Shown here piece by piece: positions 3,108 through 49,535 of a stretch of 64,000 bases of DNA. Below the pieces are notes generated by a model. The model made no database searches. It was not told the DNA's origin and was given only the letters and a program-made list of their open reading frames with translations. The translations under genes were made by a program, and so were the position numbers. Source of the DNA: an uncultured Candidatus Saccharibacteria bacterium (lineage in GTDB: Bacteria > Patescibacteriota > Minisyncoccia > Phycocordibacterales > WO2-35-19); the NCBI GenBank assembly GCA_964630525.1, contig CAZVUY010000002.1, positions 33,760 to 97,759 of the forward strand, in the 5' to 3' direction. Position 1 is the first letter of the stretch. Each line of letters starts with the position of its first letter.

Positions 3108-3220
3108 CTCGACACTAATTACGAATTGGCACGAATTTACAAATGGAATATTCGTGTTATTCGTATGAATTCGTGGATTGGTGTCGCATTGATTTTTGTT
3201 TGCTTTTTTGCTATTATTGA

Positions 3221-5695
3221 ATGGCTAAAATGGCTAAAAAAGAGGAAAAAAACGATGAAATTCTAAATACTGGGTCTAGTGTGGTGTCGCGCTCGATCGT
3301 GACCGAGATGAAAAAATCCTTCATCGACTATGCCATGTCGGTGATCACTGATCGAGCTTTGCCGGATGTGCGCGATGGCCTAAAGCCGGTTCACCGCCGC
3401 ATTCTCTATGCCATGCATACCATGGGCCTCACCGCTTCGGCTAAGTCTCGAAAGTCGGCCACAGTGGTGGGAGAAGTTTTGGGTAACTACCACCCGCACG
3501 GCGATGTCGCTGCTTATGATGCGATGGTCAAGATGGCTCAAGATTTCGGCTATCGTTACCCACTGATCGTCGGTCAGGGAAACTTTGGTTCAATTGACGG
3601 AGATTCACCAGCGGCGATGCGTTACACCGAAGCCAAGATGAGTCGGATCGCCGGCGAACTTTTGCGTGATATAGGCAAGGAGACGGTCAATTGGGTACCC
3701 AACTACGATGCCACCAAAAAAGAGCCGGCAGTTTTGCCGAGCGCAGCTCCGCAGCTTTTGCTCAACGGCACCTTGGGTATTGCGGTTGGTATGGCGACCA
3801 ATGTGCCACCCCACAATCTAAGAGAAGTGGTAGATGCGACTGTTTATTTGATAGACAACAAAGAGGCGACAACTGAAGATTTGCTGGAATTTGTCCAAGG
3901 TCCGGATTTCCCACTGGGTGGTGTTATTTTCAATGCCAAAGATATCCAACATGCCTATTCGACTGGTCGCGGCGGGGTGGTTTGCCGAGGAGTGGCTGAG
4001 ATCGTGGAAGATAAAAATATTTCCCAAATAGTCATCACTTCTCTACCTTATCGAGTCAATAAACAGTCTCTTGTTGAAAAAATAGCAGAGTTGGTTCGTG
4101 ATAAAAAACTTGAAGGCATCAAGGGTTTGCGTGACGAATCGACCAAGGACATTCGAGTGGTGATCGATCTCAAAAACGGTAGTTATCCGCAAAAAGTACT
4201 CAACTTTCTCTATAAACACACTCAACTTGAGGAAACTTTCCATTTCAACTTGGTGGCGCTCGTAGACGGCGTACCTCAGACCCTTTCGCTCAAAGGTATT
4301 TTGGAGGAGTTTATCAAACATCGACAGATAGTGGTGCGTCGGCGCACCGAATTTGACTTGCGCGAAGCCGAAGCGAGAGAGCATATCTTGCTCGGTCTCA
4401 AAAAGGCACTTGATCATATCGACGAGATCATCAAATTGATCAAGAAGAGCAAGGACGTGGATACCGCTAGAGCAAACTTGATGAAGGAGTTCAAATTCTC
4501 CGAGATTCAAGCCAACGCTATTTTGGAAATGCGACTCCAGAAACTCGCCGGTCTTGAAAGGCAGAAGATCGAAGATGAACTCAATGCGGTGCAGGCTCTG
4601 ATCAAAGAACTCAAAGATATTCTAAGCAATCCCAAAAAGATCCTCTCTATTATCAAGAAGGAACTTTCTGAAATCAGTCAAAAATATGGCGATGATCGTC
4701 GTACCAAGGTGATCAAAGGCGGTGTCAAAGTGCTTTCGATCGAAGATTTGATCGCTGACGAAGACAACACCCTTATTCTGACTGCTGGTGGCTACGTGAA
4801 GCGCACTCACCCAGACGAATATCGCAAACAAAAACGCGGCGGGGTGGGAGTGGTTGATTTGGATACCAAGGAAGAAGATTTTGTAACCAACTTTTTAACA
4901 GCCAGCACTCATTCAGACCTCTTATTCTTCACGGATCGAGGTAAGGCTTACCAAATCAAGATGCACGAATTGCCGGAAGGCAAGCGAGCGACGCGCGGCA
5001 AGTCGATCATGAATTTCCTCTCGCTTTCGGAAGGGGAGAAGGTGACCTCAATCTTACCAATGCCTAAAAATTTGAAAGAAAATAAAGATTTGTCGCTACT
5101 TATGGTGACCAGCGATGGTACCGGCAAAAAAGTTTCAGCTGCCAGTTTCCATGATGTGCGAGCGAGCGGTATTATCGCGATCAGACTTTCTGATGGGGAT
5201 CGGTTGGTATCGGTTTCGGCGGTTACCAAGGGAGATACCTGTGTGGTAGTGACTGCCAAGGGCCAATCAATCCGGTTTAAGGAAAATGATGTTAGGGAAA
5301 TGGGTCGGACTGCCGGTGGAGTGAGAGTGATTAAGTTGAGCAAAAATGACCGGGTGGTTGGCGCTCATCCAGTACCGAAAGAAAAAGAGAAAGACGCTGC
5401 TCTTTTGACCATGGGTGCAGGTGGTTATGGCAAGAAGACTCCGATTGGTGAATACAAAATACAAAATCGTGGTGGCAGCGGTATCAAGACCAGCAATGTG
5501 ACAGCGAAGACTGGCGAGATTATCGCTTCAGCGGTGGTTACCGGTGAAGAGGAGGAGGCAGTGGCTATGTCTAAAAAGAGCCAAGTGATCCGCCTCGGCC
5601 TCTCTGAAATACCGTCATTGGGCCGCTCTACTCAAGGAGTCCGTATCATGAAGCTCTACCCTGGTGACTCCATCGCTTCTTTCATTTGTCTATAG
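3221..5695 (+). CDS. gyrA: DNA gyrase subunit A
   Basis: 824 aa; N-terminal [28 protein letters not shown] and HPHGD motif, active-site region [11 protein letters not shown]-terminal beta-pinwheel repeats. Confidence 0.95.
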
Positions 5696-6340
5696 TTCCT
5701 CCCAGTCAGTACAAAGGGTGCCCCTTTGCATGTAAATTCCCTTCGTTTCTTTTTCAAATCCTTCCTTGTTGCCAAAAATATTCGGAAAAATATCTTTTGA
5801 TATTATTGGCAAACTCACATTTCTTAAATTGGTAAAATCTGTAAAACTACTCCATTTATAGTTAATTGGACTATTAGTTAAGCCGTCTTTTACTGGGTTC
5901 ATATGTATATATGAAGATATCCACCTCAGCTGTTGATCTGTTTCAATCCTGACAGCCTTAAATTGATCCTGAAAAACATGACCCACTCTATTGTACTTTT
6001 TATTTATATACATTGAAAAACTGGTACACAATCTTAACATCAAACTCGAGATTGGTTGATTTTTTAATTGCTCTATAAGCAAATGAAAATGATTTGGCAT
6101 TAGACAAAATGCATGTATTTTAAATGAATTTTTATCTGCCGTGAATTTAATTCTTGATTTGGGGAAAAACAACAAATCATGATCCAGTTCTTTTTTATCA
6201 AAACCCAATGCCAAGCCTAATCTAAATAAAAAAGCTCTATTATCGTCATTATCAAGAAAAACTTTTTCTCGGTTATTACCTCTATTATAAACATGATAAA
6301 TAGAGTTCGGTTGAAAATTTTTATAATCTCTTTTTCTCAC
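5690..6340 (-). CDS. REP-associated tyrosine transposase (RayT / IS200-like Y1 HUH transposase)
   Basis: 216 aa with [10 protein letters not shown]...[13 protein letters not shown] (HUH motif) and a downstream Tyr region; flanked by inverted REP palindromes; its stop codon overlaps the gyrA stop by 6 nt. Confidence 0.8.
5712..5728. repeat. REP palindrome copy 1 (CAAAGGG-TGC-CCCTTTG)
   Basis: exact 17-mer; lies inside the RayT C-terminal coding region. Confidence 0.8.
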
Positions 6341-6353
6341 ACTTCAATTATAA

Positions 6354-6370
6354 CAAAGGGTGCCCCTTTG
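6354..6370. repeat. REP palindrome copy 2
   Basis: exact 17-mer ACAAAGGGTGCCCCTTTGT upstream of the RayT start. Confidence 0.8.
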
Positions 6371-6397
6371 TGCTACGTATTCAACAGTTTTTAGGGA

Positions 6398-7708
6398 TTG
6401 GGATTTTGGATTTGCTATAATATAACCATGACAAAATTTCAGTTGATCGTCACTGGCATTTTCGGTGCTTTCTTGGTGATCGGGATTATTATTTTCTCAG
6501 CTTACCGAGGTTCCTCGGAAGACGCAGCCAAGATAGTTGTCTGGGGCACCATCTCTAACCTGGCTTTCAATGACATCATCCAATCCACCTCACTCTACCA
6601 AAACAAACTTTTTGATATCACTTATGTACAAAAATCAGAAGCTAGTTTCGACGCTGACTTTATAGACGCACTGGCTTCTGGTACCGGGCCAGACCTTTTC
6701 ATTCTACCGAGTAACAAAATTCTCAAGCATTACAACAAAATTTTCCTGATCCCTTACAATGTTTTCACCGAGCGACAATTCAAAGATTCTTTTATTGAAG
6801 GAGCAGAAATCTACATGGCCCCCGATGGTATTGTTGGGCTACCTATCTACACCGACCCCTTGGTAATGTATTGGAATCGGGCGATCTTTCGCGACGCCAA
6901 ACTTACAGAGCCACCCAAATATTGGGATGAGTTTTACAATCTCGCCAACCTTATCTCGGTCAAAGATGGGGCGCTCAATATTTTGAAAAGCGCGGTTGCT
7001 TTCGGTGAGTTTGCCAACGTCACCAACGCCAAAGAGATAATTGTCAATTTGGCGATGCAGGCCGGTACCCCAGTCACTCTCTGGAATGCGGGTAAGGTGC
7101 AAAGTGTTTTCAATTTTACTTTTGATAAGCCGACTGTTCCAGCCGAAGCGGCGGTCAATTTTTACACCGAATTTGGCAACCCAACCAAACCCTCATACTC
7201 TTGGAACCGTTCTCTACCGAGTTCAGCCAACTACTTTTTAGGCGGAGATTTAGCTTTGTACTTTGGTTTTGCGAGCGAGGTGACTAATCTACAAGTCAAA
7301 AATCCTAACTTGAATTTCGATGTGGCGAGGGTCCCTGTCTCCCGGGAAGGAGGTACTCTGGTTTCTTATGCTGATTTTGGTGCCCTCGCTATCACCAAAT
7401 CTTCTAAAAATCCAAACGCCGCTTTCCAGGTAGCCTCCATCCTCTCCGGTAGCGAGGGGGCCAGTGCCTTTAGCGCTGCTCTAAGATTGCCTTCGGCTCG
7501 GCGTGACCTGCTCAACAAGAGGCCGGAAAATGCTTATCAAAGTGTCTTCCGGGACAGTGCGATCAGGGCCAAGAGTTGGCTTGATCCAGACCAGGCGATG
7601 AGCGATCAGATTTTCAAAAACATGATTGAGTCGATCACAAGCGGTCGAGCGAGGACTACCGCCGCCGTCTCCCGTGCTCACCAAGAACTTTCTAACCTTT
7701 TAAAATAA
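6398..7708 (+). CDS. extracellular solute-binding protein (ABC transporter SBP family 1-like), N-terminal membrane anchor; likely start MTKFQL at 6428
   Basis: 436 aa; signal-anchor TM, then a YWDEF and W/Y-rich sugar-SBP-like fold; stop is 1 nt before the first pilin gene. Confidence 0.6.
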   Translation: MGFWICYNITMTKFQLIVTGIFGAFLVIGIIIFSAYRGSSEDAAKIVVWGTISNLAFNDIIQSTSLYQNKLFDITYVQKSEASFDADFIDALASGTGPDLFILPSNKILKHYNKIFLIPYNVFTERQFKDSFIEGAEIYMAPDGIVGLPIYTDPLVMYWNRAIFRDAKLTEPPKYWDEFYNLANLISVKDGALNILKSAVAFGEFANVTNAKEIIVNLAMQAGTPVTLWNAGKVQSVFNFTFDKPTVPAEAAVNFYTEFGNPTKPSYSWNRSLPSSANYFLGGDLALYFGFASEVTNLQVKNPNLNFDVARVPVSREGGTLVSYADFGALAITKSSKNPNAAFQVASILSGSEGASAFSAALRLPSARRDLLNKRPENAYQSVFRDSAIRAKSWLDPDQAMSDQIFKNMIESITSGRARTTAAVSRAHQELSNLLK

Positions 7709-13596: not shown

Positions 13597-13679
13597 TGCT
13601 GGGGAGGAGACTTGAACTCCTAATCCACAAGGGAACTAGTTCCTAAGACTAGCGCGTATACCAATTCCGCCACCCCAGC
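13597..13679 (-). tRNA. tRNA-Leu (anticodon TAG)
   Basis: GCTGGGGTGGCGGAATTGGTATACGCGCTAGTCTTAGGAACTAG + long variable arm + GGAGTTCAAGTCTCCTCCCCAGCA. Confidence 0.85.
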
Positions 13680-13714
13680 TTTAAGTCCGAAAAATTAATT
13701 TATTTTTTGACTTG

Positions 13715-13787
13715 TCCGCCCGGTAGGAGTCGAACCTACGACAATCTCCTTAAGAGGGAGCCGCTCTACCAACTGAGCTACGGGCGG
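13715..13787 (-). tRNA. tRNA-Lys (anticodon CTT)
   Basis: CCGCCCGTAGCTCAGTTGGTAGAGCGGCTCCCTCTTAAGGAG...GTAGGTTCGACTCCTACCGGGCGGA; perfect 7-bp acceptor. Confidence 0.8.
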
Positions 13788-13844
13788 GTATTTATGAATA
13801 AGAATATACCATATAACAATTTTTATGGTAAGCTAAATTTGTTT

Positions 13845-13919
13845 GACCTAGTCGCCAAGTGGTAAGGCAAGAGTCTGCAAAACTCTTATACGGCGGTTCG
13901 ATTCCGCCCTAGGTCTCCA
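13845..13919 (+). tRNA. tRNA-Cys (anticodon GCA), CCA encoded
   Basis: GACCTAGTCGCCAAGTGGTAAGGCAAGAGTCTGCAAAACTCTTATACGGCGGTTCGATTCCGCCCTAGGTCTCCA. Confidence 0.85.
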
Positions 13920-13952
13920 TCGTCTCAAACTGATTTTTAGGGGCGATAAATT

Positions 13953-14034
13953 GCCCGGGTGGCGGAATCGGTATACGCAGTCGACTTAAAATCGGCGGCC
14001 TCACGGCTTGTGGGTTCAAGTCCCACCCCGGGCA
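13953..14034 (+). tRNA. tRNA-Leu (anticodon TAA)
   Basis: GCCCGGGTGGCGGAATCGGTATACGCAGTCGACTTAAAATCGGCGG + long variable arm + GTGGGTTCAAGTCCCACCCCGGGCA. Confidence 0.85.
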
Positions 14035-47641: not shown

Positions 47642-47741
47642 AAAATGCCCCACCCCCAACCCCTCCCCAAAGGGGAGGGGAAAAACACAAAAAATCATTT
47701 CTTTGATCGGAATAGATAAAACAAAATATTTTTTACTTTCC

Positions 47742-47769
47742 AAAAAATGGCTCAGTTGAGCCATTTTTT
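47742..47769. terminator. bidirectional intrinsic terminator
   Basis: AAAAAATGGCTC-AGTT-GAGCCATTTTTT. Confidence 0.6.
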
Positions 47770-47812
47770 GGTTACCAAACCAAACAAAATGCATTTTTCG
47801 TGTCAAAATCCT

Positions 47813-47846
47813 TGACAATATTTGTGGTTGTGCTACACTATTTCCA
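47813..47846 (+). promoter_or_regulatory. sigma-70-like promoter TTGACA-N16/17-TACACT
   Basis: near-consensus -35 and -10 hexamers upstream of a small GC-rich transcription unit. Confidence 0.45.
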
Positions 47847-47894
47847 GTTAGCTTTTTCAATTTTGTTTGAATTTTTCGTTCGCAAGGAGTCAGT

Positions 47895-47963
47895 ATGAGT
47901 CACCACGCAAACCGGGTTGGCCCGGCGACCACCGTCGCCACCAGCCATAAGATAACGGCCTGA
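47895..47963 (+). CDS. candidate 22-aa small ORF (MSHHANRVGPATTVATSHKITA) inside a hairpin-rich sRNA-like unit
   Basis: AAGGAG 5 nt upstream of ATG; the ORF body is made of GC hairpins (CCGGGTTGGCCCGG, GCGACCACCGTCGC), so an RNA function is equally likely. Confidence 0.3.
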   Translation: MSHHANRVGPATTVATSHKITA

Positions 47964-48284
47964 ACTGCCGGCGCCGGGCCGCGAGCGACCAAAAGGTCGC
48001 TCGCGGCCAGCGAAAATGAAGATGGTGTTTACCCCAAGCCCCGCCCCCAAGTCTAAATGACAAGGGAGCCGGGGCTTTTTATTTGCTATATTTTGTTTGA
48101 CACAAATTTTTATTTTGCTATTATTTTTCTCATGACCAAGAGCTTCCTCTTCGAGTCACCAGCGTCGGTTTGCTCCGGCTAAGCCACTTACGGCTTTAGG
48201 AGTAATCCGATGCCCACCCCGCCCCTCTTATGGTACCTACCCAGAGAGGGGTTTTTAATTACTCAAGTATGGTTCCGGTAGGGT

Positions 48285-49535
48285 TTGGGTGTTAGGATAT
48301 TTCAAATGAAAAATTTTTGGAACAAAATGAAAAAGTCCCACGACGCTGAAGCTTTGCGGGATAAACCAATACTTTGCCTTGCTCCCATGGCTGATGTGAC
48401 TGATGCGGCATTCCGCTACATTATCGCTAAACACAGCAAAAATGACAAAGGGTGCCCCTTTGTCATTTGGACAGAATTTGTTTCGGCTGATGGGCTTGCT
48501 TTGGCGCCGGAGGAAGGTCGAAGGAAACTTTTGAAAGATTTGGAGTACAGCGAGATCGAACGGCCGATAGTCGCTCAGTTTTTTACTTCTCGGCCGGAAA
48601 ACATGGAGAAGGTAGCTCGGCTAGCGCTTGAACTTGGGTTTGATGGGGTGGATATCAACATGGGCTGTCCGGACAAGAGTATTGAAAAGCAGGGTGCCGG
48701 TGCTGCTCTCATTAAAAATCCTAGTTTGGCCAAAGAAATCATTTTGGCAGCGAGGCGGGGAGTAAATGATGAGATACCAGTTTCGGTCAAGACCCGGATT
48801 GGATATAACAAAGACGAAATCGAAACTTGGATACCAAATTTGCTAGAAGTTTCTCCGGCTGTCATCACCATTCACGCCCGCACTCGCAAAGAAATGTCAA
48901 AGGTAGCCGCAAGGTGGGAGCATGTGAAGCGAGCAGTTGAGATCAGAGATGAAATACAAAATTTTCCTCCACCACATCCCCAGAAATGCACGGATATTTT
49001 TCTGCTGAAAAATTCCTCGTGCTCGCCTCAGTCAGGCTCGCAAGGCATTTCTGGAGATATGGTTTCAGAAAATTTAAGAAAAACCCTGATTTTCGGCAAT
49101 GGGGATGTGGCAAGTGTAGCAGATGCTTATAAAAAAGCGGAGGAAACAGGAGCAGATGGAGTGATGCTCGGCCGAGCCATTTTCGGCAACCCGTTTCTAT
49201 TTGCTGGTTATGAACCGACTTGGCAGGAGAGGTTAGCGGTACTTGTAGAACATACTTTTTTGTTTGAAAAGAAATTTGGTGGGGTAAACCCTGTAGTAGA
49301 TTTTGGCATAGCACAAAGTGCGGATAAAAGATCCAATGCCAAAATTCACTACGGGGTAAAAAGCTTCGCGGTCATGAAAAAACATTTTAAATCATATTTA
49401 TCTTATGTTTCTCACGCCAAAGAAGATCCCGCTTGGCACCAGGCTGTCAAAAATTTACGCGAAGAATTGATGCTGGCTGAGAGTGCCTTAGCTGTGTCCG
49501 AACTGGTAGAAAAATTTTTGCTCAAGTATAATTAA
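48285..49535 (+). CDS. Dus family tRNA-dihydrouridine synthase carrying two in-frame repeat-derived insertions
   Basis: LAPMADVTD...FDGVDINMGCP...SVKTRIG...HARTR Dus TIM-barrel motifs; REP palindrome encodes NDKGCPFVIW (48442-48466); a ~110-bp palindromic repeat-family element encodes an extra ~45 aa (48950-49080); 416 aa versus ~320-350 typical. Confidence 0.8.
   Translation: MGVRIFQMKNFWNKMKKSHDAEALRDKPILCLAPMADVTDAAFRYIIAKHSKNDKGCPFVIWTEFVSADGLALAPEEGRRKLLKDLEYSEIERPIVAQFFTSRPENMEKVARLALELGFDGVDINMGCPDKSIEKQGAGAALIKNPSLAKEIILAARRGVNDEIPVSVKTRIGYNKDEIETWIPNLLEVSPAVITIHARTRKEMSKVAARWEHVKRAVEIRDEIQNFPPPHPQKCTDIFLLKNSSCSPQSGSQGISGDMVSENLRKTLIFGNGDVASVADAYKKAEETGADGVMLGRAIFGNPFLFAGYEPTWQERLAVLVEHTFLFEKKFGGVNPVVDFGIAQSADKRSNAKIHYGVKSFAVMKKHFKSYLSYVSHAKEDPAWHQAVKNLREELMLAESALAVSELVEKFLLKYN
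48446..48462. repeat. REP palindrome copy 3 (in frame inside dus); extended 25-nt palindrome 48442-48466
   Basis: ATGACAAAGGG-TGC-CCCTTTGTCAT; core identical to the RayT-flanking REPs. Confidence 0.8.
48960..49075. repeat. palindromic repeat element D (in frame inside dus)
   Basis: terminal IR CAGAAATGC...GCATTTCTG; interior TTTTCTGCTGAAAA...CCTCAG homologous to element S. Confidence 0.65.

Follow-up and report, generated by a model that had tools for sequence, protein, structure and literature searches.

A RAYT-like Y1 HUH gene with cognate palindromes in a conserved gyrA slot of Patescibacteria

REP-associated tyrosine transposases (RAYTs), the companions of repetitive extragenic palindromes (REPs), are thought to be domesticated transposases that bring their hosts some benefit, the nature of which is debated; most work on them concerns genomes with hundreds of REPs, which obscure cause and effect. 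In Escherichia coli, TnpA_REP (RAYT group 2, TnpA_Y1 subclass 2.2, PDB 4ER8) is a single-copy HUH enzyme with one catalytic tyrosine (Y1) and a Y---NP motif, and its vertically inherited gene is bracketed by cognate hairpin-forming palindromes, an arrangement called the REPtron. There is published evidence for co-evolution between the enzyme and REPs (PMC6006769, PMC8266576), and the sequences that flank RAYT genes are over-represented genome-wide, giving tens to hundreds of REPs (PMC5581495), although REPtrons also exist in species without REP families (PMC3733652). Here, we analyze a 64,000-nt stretch of DNA (the window) from an uncultured Candidatus Saccharibacteria bacterium (assembly GCA_964630525.1, contig CAZVUY010000002.1, positions 33,760 to 97,759), in which a gene for a 216-aa Y1 protein converges on gyrA and is flanked by two copies of a short palindrome, with a third copy in the distant gene dus. 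The reading that we favor, with a probability of roughly 0.7, is that of a vertically inherited, single-copy class-2 Y1 HUH endonuclease gene (RAYT/TnpA_REP-like) that forms, together with its cognate hairpin palindromes, a REPtron-like unit in a slot between gyrA and a solute-binding protein (SBP) gene that is conserved in Paceibacteria-type bacteria of the candidate phyla radiation (CPR).

A preliminary description of this DNA had taken the 216-aa open reading frame (ORF) for an HUH Y1 protein with the motifs HVYNRG and NHFHLLIE. Both motifs are present, the first within YHVYNRGNN, and the assignment is borne out by profile searches and structure prediction, which together indicate a Y1 HUH enzyme with an HUH/RRM-like (RNA recognition motif-like) fold. 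The Pfam family PF01797 (Y1_Tnp) matches residues 13–147 with 53.5 bits, the cut-off being 23 (3.4e-14), and the best NCBIfam match is the REP-associated tyrosine transposase model NF047646 (REP_Tyr_transpos; 6.7e-21). Across an alignment of 35 homologs with a mean column identity of 60%, H84, F85, H86, Y144, I145, H146 and N148 are invariant, as is a C-terminal Y..W-S-S motif, and P149 is kept in at least 90% of the sequences. The Y---NP signature distinguishes class-2 (TnpA_REP) TnpA_Y1 enzymes from those of class 1 (IS200), which carry Y---Q (PMC6006769); the tyrosine motif of the window protein, YIHMNP, conforms to class 2. When the PDB was searched with the alignment profile, 4ER8 was the one match (E = 0.0012), and the same structure was the top Foldseek match of the AlphaFold (AF2) model (E = 2e-4, template modeling (TM) scores 0.51/0.64), followed by ISDra2, IS608 and IS200 TnpA, such that all of the top 19 PDB matches are TnpA_REP, ISDra2, IS608 or IS200 TnpA. 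The model has a predicted local distance difference test (pLDDT) score of 76.9, with the tail, residues 203–216, falling below 50; these final ~14 residues are encoded by the 3' palindrome. No helix-turn-helix (HTH) domain was found in the protein by Pfam profile search. From its sequence, we infer that the enzyme is catalytically active.

Comparison with the described subclasses places the enzyme near several of them. Although 4ER8 is its closest solved relative by both profile and predicted fold, the window protein is only about 16% identical to E. coli TnpA_REP, from which it differs by an additional segment of ~25 residues ahead of the HUH strand and by a WSS-containing extension at the C-terminus. 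The palindromes differ from E. coli REPs in being perfect and short (stems of 7–13 bp), without a GTAG foot or a bulge, and in their number, about 3 copies per 64 kb as opposed to hundreds per genome. Judged from motifs only, the enzyme fits subclass 2.1 (RAYT group 1/TIRYT, the terminal inverted repeat-associated tyrosine transposases) well: the signatures of this subclass are NH[YF]H, FQ and Y[IV]HLNP, plus a conserved SS in an extension at the C-terminus (PMC6006769, Table 1), and the window protein has NHFH, VFQD, YIHMNP and KWSS. However, members of subclass 2.1 are reported either without flanking REP-like hairpins or with long terminal inverted repeats (GGGGWSAS) and HTH C-terminal domains, whereas each flank in the window is a short perfect palindrome and no such domain was detected.

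Among the distant relatives that we found are cyanobacterial, Chlorobi-type and Anaerolineae genes amid REP arrays, which are dense around the Y1 genes of the cyanobacterial loci L060, L077, L084 and L085, and this setting recalls RAYT group 4 (subclass 2.4; Cyanobacteria, Bacteroidetes and scattered phyla). In subclass 2.4, REPs are inserted inside the tnpA_REP gene without disruption of the frame (PMC6006769), and sister CPR clades likewise carry an in-frame palindrome inside the Y1 gene, but this palindrome lies before HUH in the CPR clades and generally between HUH and Tyr in subclass 2.4. By published signatures, subclass 2.4 is further set apart by WQ, YIxNNP and long or double-foot GT[AG]G REPs, the CPR clade having FQ and YIHMNP and no GTAG. 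Internal palindromes of this kind, third cognate copies, were seen in more distant CPR Y1 subfamilies (loci L033, L039, L040, L051, L054, L058 and L066), at about +140 nt (IQGxPLDKI), usually as a close match to the flanks in the same genome; in L054, the internal palindrome differs more from the flanks.

A pattern search of the window for CAAAGGGTGCCCCTTTG, allowing at most 2 mismatches, found it at 5712, 6354 and 48446, always on the + strand, and at no other site; with 3–4 mismatches tolerated, just two more sites appeared, both dissimilar. Three matches were reached in 0 of 100 dinucleotide-preserving shuffles (expected count 0.01), so that the copies are not there by chance. The exact unit common to the three copies is ACAAAGGGTGCCCCTTTG (5711–5728, 6353–6370 and 48445–48462), that is, 18 nt and not the 17 nt initially given. 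The two copies around the Y1 gene are indeed identical, and they are direct repeats with the TGC loop of both on the + strand; however, the gyrA-side copy, thought to lie outside the ORF, is within its last 13 codons. The claim of a third, longer copy in frame within dus, 42 kb away, stands without change, this copy being perfectly palindromic over 29 nt, with a stem of 13 bp. Folded as single-stranded DNA, the flanking copies reach −6.1 kcal/mol (z −2.4) and −6.7 kcal/mol (z −3.2) and the dus copy −12.7 kcal/mol (z −4.5). A scan against Rfam gave no match at the palindromes.

Nearly all CPR homologs of the Y1 gene have cognate palindromes on both sides, and the anatomy of the two sides is distinct. 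In the main clade, the 5' side has the layout cTTGnTGTCAAAG-N5-CTTTGACATAAT-N4-6-ATG, in which the palindrome occupies the 17-nt spacer between TTGnTG and a CATAAT/TATAAT hexamer; in most of the close homologs, [TC]ATAAT has a fixed position, beginning at −12 or −13 relative to the start codon. It is this conserved −10 position across relatives on which the argument for a promoter of the Y1 gene rests, and the transcript would be near-leaderless, with the palindrome in what is probably an operator position. On the 3' side, relatives usually have ...TGTCAAAG-N5-CTT-TGA-CA, where the palindrome supplies the stop codon (TGA within CTTTGACA), and the variable C-terminal tails of the Y1 proteins (DVKGSL*, MSRVPLD...) are translated palindrome; REP ends are known to supply stop codons to neighboring ORFs (PMC3733652). 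The window variant, CCCTTTGT, has no TGA, and the Y1 ORF therefore continues into an overlap with gyrA. This overlap of the two stop codons, already described at the outset, is 6 bp long and consists of the palindromic hexamer CTATAG.

The central 5–7 nt of the palindrome differ between genomes and match within a genome. We quantified this by seeking the core of the longest upstream hairpin downstream of the gene, with at most 1 mismatch and in either orientation, in the same locus and in mismatched pairs of loci: the core was found again downstream of the same gene in 29 of 38 loci, compared to 78 of 1406 mismatched pairs.

Copies beyond the flanks are rare. The window holds a single one, in dus, and the loci of relatives, about 0.5 Mb in all, hold about 4–6 distant cognate copies, roughly one per 100 kb, including exact copies about 10 kb away from the gene in L009 and L040. 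REPIN-like inverted doublets occur at L017, L033, L057 and L058. In four loci (L004 at 11292, L014 at 11193, L022 at 1025 and L031 at 1155), a gene separates Y1 from gyrA and an added palindrome lies 20–30 nt downstream of the gyrA stop, such that the intervening gene is bounded by palindromes in a cassette-like manner. A metagenome scan for the 17-mer yielded single-copy matches in at least 120 unrelated contigs (L088–L207), nearly all of the listed ones within an unrelated conserved context, gtgcCAAAGGGTGCCCCTTTGgaaaccc, beside plasmid-type or integrative and conjugative element (ICE)-type genes (TEM beta-lactamase, sul2-like, XRE regulators, relaxase-like). None of the metagenome matches listed is accompanied by Y1 or Dus, and Rfam gave nothing in the four loci tested; the 17-mer in this context may be an origin-of-transfer (oriT)-type hairpin.

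The dus copy, with the arms AAATGACAAAGGG-TGC-CCCTTTGTCATTT, is translated as NDKGCPFV. It and the 3' end of the Y1 gene alike resemble the palindromes that are translated in frame in housekeeping genes, namely, the in-frame intragenic REPs described previously (PMC3733652) and the Rickettsia palindromic elements (RPE), but the window palindrome is much shorter (17–29 nt) than CGTC and RPE repeats, has a very low copy number and comes with a cognate Y1 gene. An alignment of 54 Dus homologs (P0121–P0174, of which P0121 is 100% identical to the window Dus) indicates that the site between AKYSK and YVTYTEFVSADGL (window 48420–48470) is hypervariable. Many lineages have no insert at all, and the rest have in-frame insertions that turn up in more than one lineage (for example, SQGAPL, VPRSFSEVG, DKLRAN, SSARLSQPAQGTLERIF and EEFSSKKISVQSE), a pattern that suggests several families of translated mobile repeats. 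In L086, the codons for the SQGAPL insert form CAAGGGGCACCCTTG, which belongs to one palindrome family with the Y1 flanks. The window palindrome itself is kept in L208, where Dus is 83% identical; the outer stem is changed there from TGAC..GTCA to TAAC..GTTA, a compensatory replacement, and one inner change is uncompensated.

Contig L209 matches the window with 98–99% identity along most of its length and diverges sharply across window positions 47840–48470 (1300–2010 in L209), a tract that comprises the intergenic DNA ahead of dus as well as the initial ~165 nt of the gene. The point at which the two sequences agree again is exactly the 3' arm of the dus palindrome. The Dus of L209 reads EQPFDKLRANH where that of the window has NDKGCP, and its dus 5' region resembles the allele of L087, so that we attribute the difference to a recombination tract with its end at the insert site, and not to a new insertion in the window. 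We considered a very recent insertion of the dus palindrome, given that the nearly identical L209 lacks it, and rejected it because L208 keeps the palindrome and the 5' region of dus in L209 is a divergent recombinant allele.

By analogy with TnpA_REP and IS200/IS605 TnpA, the Y1 enzyme would recognize the palindrome as a single-stranded DNA hairpin and would cut and rejoin DNA beside it. Such cutting and rejoining could occasionally seed or replace copies, as at the dus site, at the 3' end of gyrA and within the Y1 gene of sister clades, and the same activity would keep the copies within a genome identical while genomes diverge. The 5' palindrome abuts the −10-like box of a putatively near-leaderless gene, where binding probably autoregulates transcription, and the 3' palindrome closes the Y1 ORF between two convergent genes. 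Both the mobilization or homogenization of the palindromes by the enzyme and a promoter or operator function of the 5' palindrome are proposed on the basis of sequence comparison.

The main rival explanation holds that the palindromes are purely cis-regulatory, the 5' copy being a promoter operator and the 3' copy a hairpin or terminator between convergent genes, that the domesticated Y1 protein no longer mobilizes anything, and that the dus and stray copies arose through other, unrelated events, for example, palindrome-prone template switching or recombination. This scenario accounts for the anatomy, given that the 5' copy lies right beside the −10 box, filling the 17-nt spacer in relatives, while the 3' copy provides the stop and lies between convergent genes, as well as for the very low copy number, and it agrees with the stable slot. 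What it does not account for is the concerted turnover: the palindromes change from genome to genome, yet the two or three copies stay identical within a genome, an outcome that point mutation and selection could hardly produce by themselves. Neither does it explain exact cognate copies tens of kilobases away, 42 kb in the case of dus and about 10 kb in L009 and L040, or the inverted doublets near some relatives. Moreover, HUH and Tyr are strictly conserved, which would be needless for a mere DNA-binding repressor. We therefore consider a purely regulatory role unlikely.

The protein search with Y1 returned 2095 homolog clusters; the best 120 of the 2095 are 55–66% identical to the query, and every source name given among these is patescibacterial (Parcubacteria, Nomurabacteria, Zambryskibacteria, Paceibacterota). 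Some homologs are already annotated automatically as 'REP element-mobilizing transposase RayT'. The preliminary description had considered such a gene noteworthy in a CPR genome, RayT systems being mostly proteobacterial; this no longer holds, with more than 2000 homolog clusters, several of them annotated as RayT, and with RAYTs known from many phyla (PMC5581495, PMC6006769). The window shares with L001, L002–L004 and L007 a neighborhood consisting of lactamase_B_3, a small ORF, gyrA converging on Y1, the SBP gene and several genes similar to type IV secretion system (T4SS) pilins; a methyltransferase gene is sometimes found between Y1 and the SBP gene in relatives. Among the 79 genome loci compared, about 20 of 29 close homologs in Patescibacteria are in this slot, in which gyrA lies downstream of Y1 and converges on it and the SBP gene lies upstream. 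Pairwise identities of Y1 and GyrA are correlated (Mantel r = 0.55, p = 0.0002, n = 19), with Y1 evolving faster, such that it is 60–79% identical where GyrA is 87–93% identical. Taken together, these comparisons show a mostly vertically inherited, single-copy member of a very large syntenic clade. An exception to the vertical pattern is L042 (5290–6100), in which GyrA is 85% and SBP 70% identical to the window proteins and the Y1 protein in the same slot just 40%. The palindrome of this locus, CTGCCGAGA-N9-TCTCGGCAG on both sides of Y1, is unrelated to that of the window, and a TATAAT is found at −13; this suggests that the whole cassette was replaced from palindrome to palindrome. A second departure is the assembly MFUU01 (L008 and L030), with two Y1 paralogs in one genome, one beside gyrA and one elsewhere, and with different palindromes. 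The features of the window are listed in Table 1.

Table 1. Coordinates of the Y1 gene, the palindromes and their context in the window
Feature	Position	Strand	Remarks
gyrA	3221..5695	+	convergent with the Y1 gene; GyrA C-terminus conserved in relatives
Y1 HUH (RAYT/TnpA_REP-like) gene	5690..6340	-	216 aa, GTG start; HUH = H84-F-H86; catalytic Tyr = Y144 in YIHMNP
3' cognate palindrome (exact 18-nt unit)	5711..5728		in the final Y1 codons, 16 nt past the stop of gyrA; oriented like the 5' copy
TATAAT, perfect -10-like hexamer	6347..6352	-	6 nt upstream of the GTG start
5' cognate palindrome ACAAAGGGTGCCCCTTTGT	6353..6371		8-bp stem, 3-nt loop; ends 12 nt upstream of the Y1 start codon, abutting the -10-like box
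SBP_bac-type solute-binding protein gene	6398..7708	+	other side of the conserved slot; context only
dus (tRNA-dihydrouridine synthase)	48306..49535	+	host gene of the intragenic palindrome
third palindrome copy	48440..48468		29 nt, perfect, 13-bp stem; in frame in dus at a hypervariable Dus-family insertion site

The conserved slot bears directly on a further possibility, that of an autonomous insertion sequence (IS) of the IS200/IS605 type, carrying a subterminal hairpin at its left and at its right end on the same strand, newly inserted at the 3' end of gyrA. The similarity to IS608 and ISDra2 lies in the HUH Y1 fold, with IS200/IS605 TnpA structures among the fold matches, in the compact unit of ~0.7 kb (spanning about 660 bp with its two hairpins) and in the location of both hairpins on one strand in the window, and the recognition of subterminal single-stranded hairpins may be analogous. 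However, the IS200 equivalog model NF033573 (transpos_IS200) gives 15.7 bits against a cut-off of 55 (E 0.013), the tyrosine motif is the class-2 Y---NP and not Y---Q (PMC6006769), and the window has one Y1 copy. Furthermore, the slot is fixed across a bacterial class, being occupied also in relatives whose GyrA is 62–85% identical to that of the window, and the divergence of Y1 follows that of GyrA. The alignment of GyrA with relatives extends through residue 824 of 824, and its C-terminus is therefore unaffected, so that the idea that the element had altered gyrA is ruled out. Given the slot shared by many Patescibacteria and the complete GyrA, the gene did not newly land on gyrA; a recent IS200/IS605-type insertion is largely refuted, and we hold it to be very improbable. 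That the three 17-mers are coincidental and the Y1 ORF spurious has nothing in its favor beyond the shortness of the repeat and is as good as impossible, considering the shuffles, the more than 2000 homologs with the catalytic motifs kept and the recurrence of the same palindrome arrangement in dozens of genomes.

Several observations weigh against a REPtron-like unit as we propose it. The NF047646 RayT equivalog cut-off is missed, with 74.7 bits versus 80, and the match covers residues 64–164 only, the N-terminal 63 residues being unaligned; of the Y1 and RAYT profiles, Y1_Tnp matches above its cut-off and the NCBI RayT model below. The flanks in the window are direct, whereas those of the classical REPtron are inverted; among the relatives, 17 are inverted, 11 direct and 1 other, so that orientation lacks the constraint seen in classical REPtrons. 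In 28 aligned flanks, no guide tetranucleotide of the GTAG type is conserved beside the palindromes, a GTAG 2 nt from the 5' palindrome being found in the window only. Of the traits that characterize RAYTs, the system lacks a score above the NCBI cut-off, the GTAG foot and, in the window, the inverted flanks, and a high copy number is absent from the sequence analyzed. The RayT-REP arrangement originally proposed for this locus stands in that a RAYT-like Y1 gene is bracketed by identical hairpins with another copy in dus, and is overstated or unsupported as regards the RayT cut-off, the repetitive copy number and the orientation of the flanks. With one copy beyond the flanks in 64 kb and few in relatives (0–2 extra cognate copies within ±10 kb), REP-type dissemination is, by this count, weak or ancient. 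In the assembly of the closest Y1 relative, to which both L007 and L087 belong, dus contains a different insert and lacks a cognate palindrome. Finally, the window has no convincing −35 element, a promoter scan did not yield a complete sigma-70 promoter for Y1, and the expression of this copy, with a GTG start on a putative leaderless mRNA, is uncertain.

Some features of the surrounding DNA deserve mention in their own right. Within the strain-variable tract upstream of dus, an island of ~65 nt (TTTTATTTTGCTATTATTTTTC.CATGACCAAGAGCTTCCTCTTCGAGTCACCAGCG, window 48112–48175) is conserved and could be a promoter, a leader or a small RNA; an Rfam scan gave no match in this tract, the island included. 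The intergenic region between a ClpB-like gene and dus (47660–48008) contains several strong GC-rich palindromes unrelated to that of Y1, for example, CCCCTCCCCAAAGGGGAGGGG at 47660–47680 and GGCCGCGAGCGACCAAAAGGTCGCTCGCGGCC at 47977–48008. In L209, an extra 405-aa ORF (3165–4382), absent from the window, lies between dus and the next gene. Five tRNA genes, out of nine in the whole window, are clustered on both strands at 13597–14034.

We found no literature that links RAYT, TnpA_REP or IS200 with Patescibacteria or Parcubacteria, in a partial coverage of the literature, and the absence of such papers is no proof of novelty. Each feature of the system has a precedent, so that it extends known biology rather than overturning it. 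What the analysis adds is a large Y1 clade, with more than 2000 protein clusters, that is retained in one slot of small, gene-poor genomes together with cognate hairpins that number only two or three in about 60 kb, and the documentation of translated palindromes in CPR housekeeping proteins. The strict conservation of the catalytic residues beside so few substrates argues that the Y1 enzyme does something other than bulk REP spreading. A bolder possibility, which we put forward as a speculation with the odds well against it, is that Y1 in streamlined CPR genomes and its two or three cognate hairpins are not a REP disseminator but a domesticated, self-regulating single-strand recombination module, which would continually rewrite, in a concerted manner, the hairpins at its promoter, at its stop codon and within its own gene and would occasionally seed in-frame hairpins and mark the boundaries of recombination tracts in housekeeping genes such as dus. 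If this were true, the module would be a driver of the peptide insertions and the strain-level mosaicism that are typical of CPR proteins, and it would offer a minimal, low-copy system for the long-debated host function of RAYTs.

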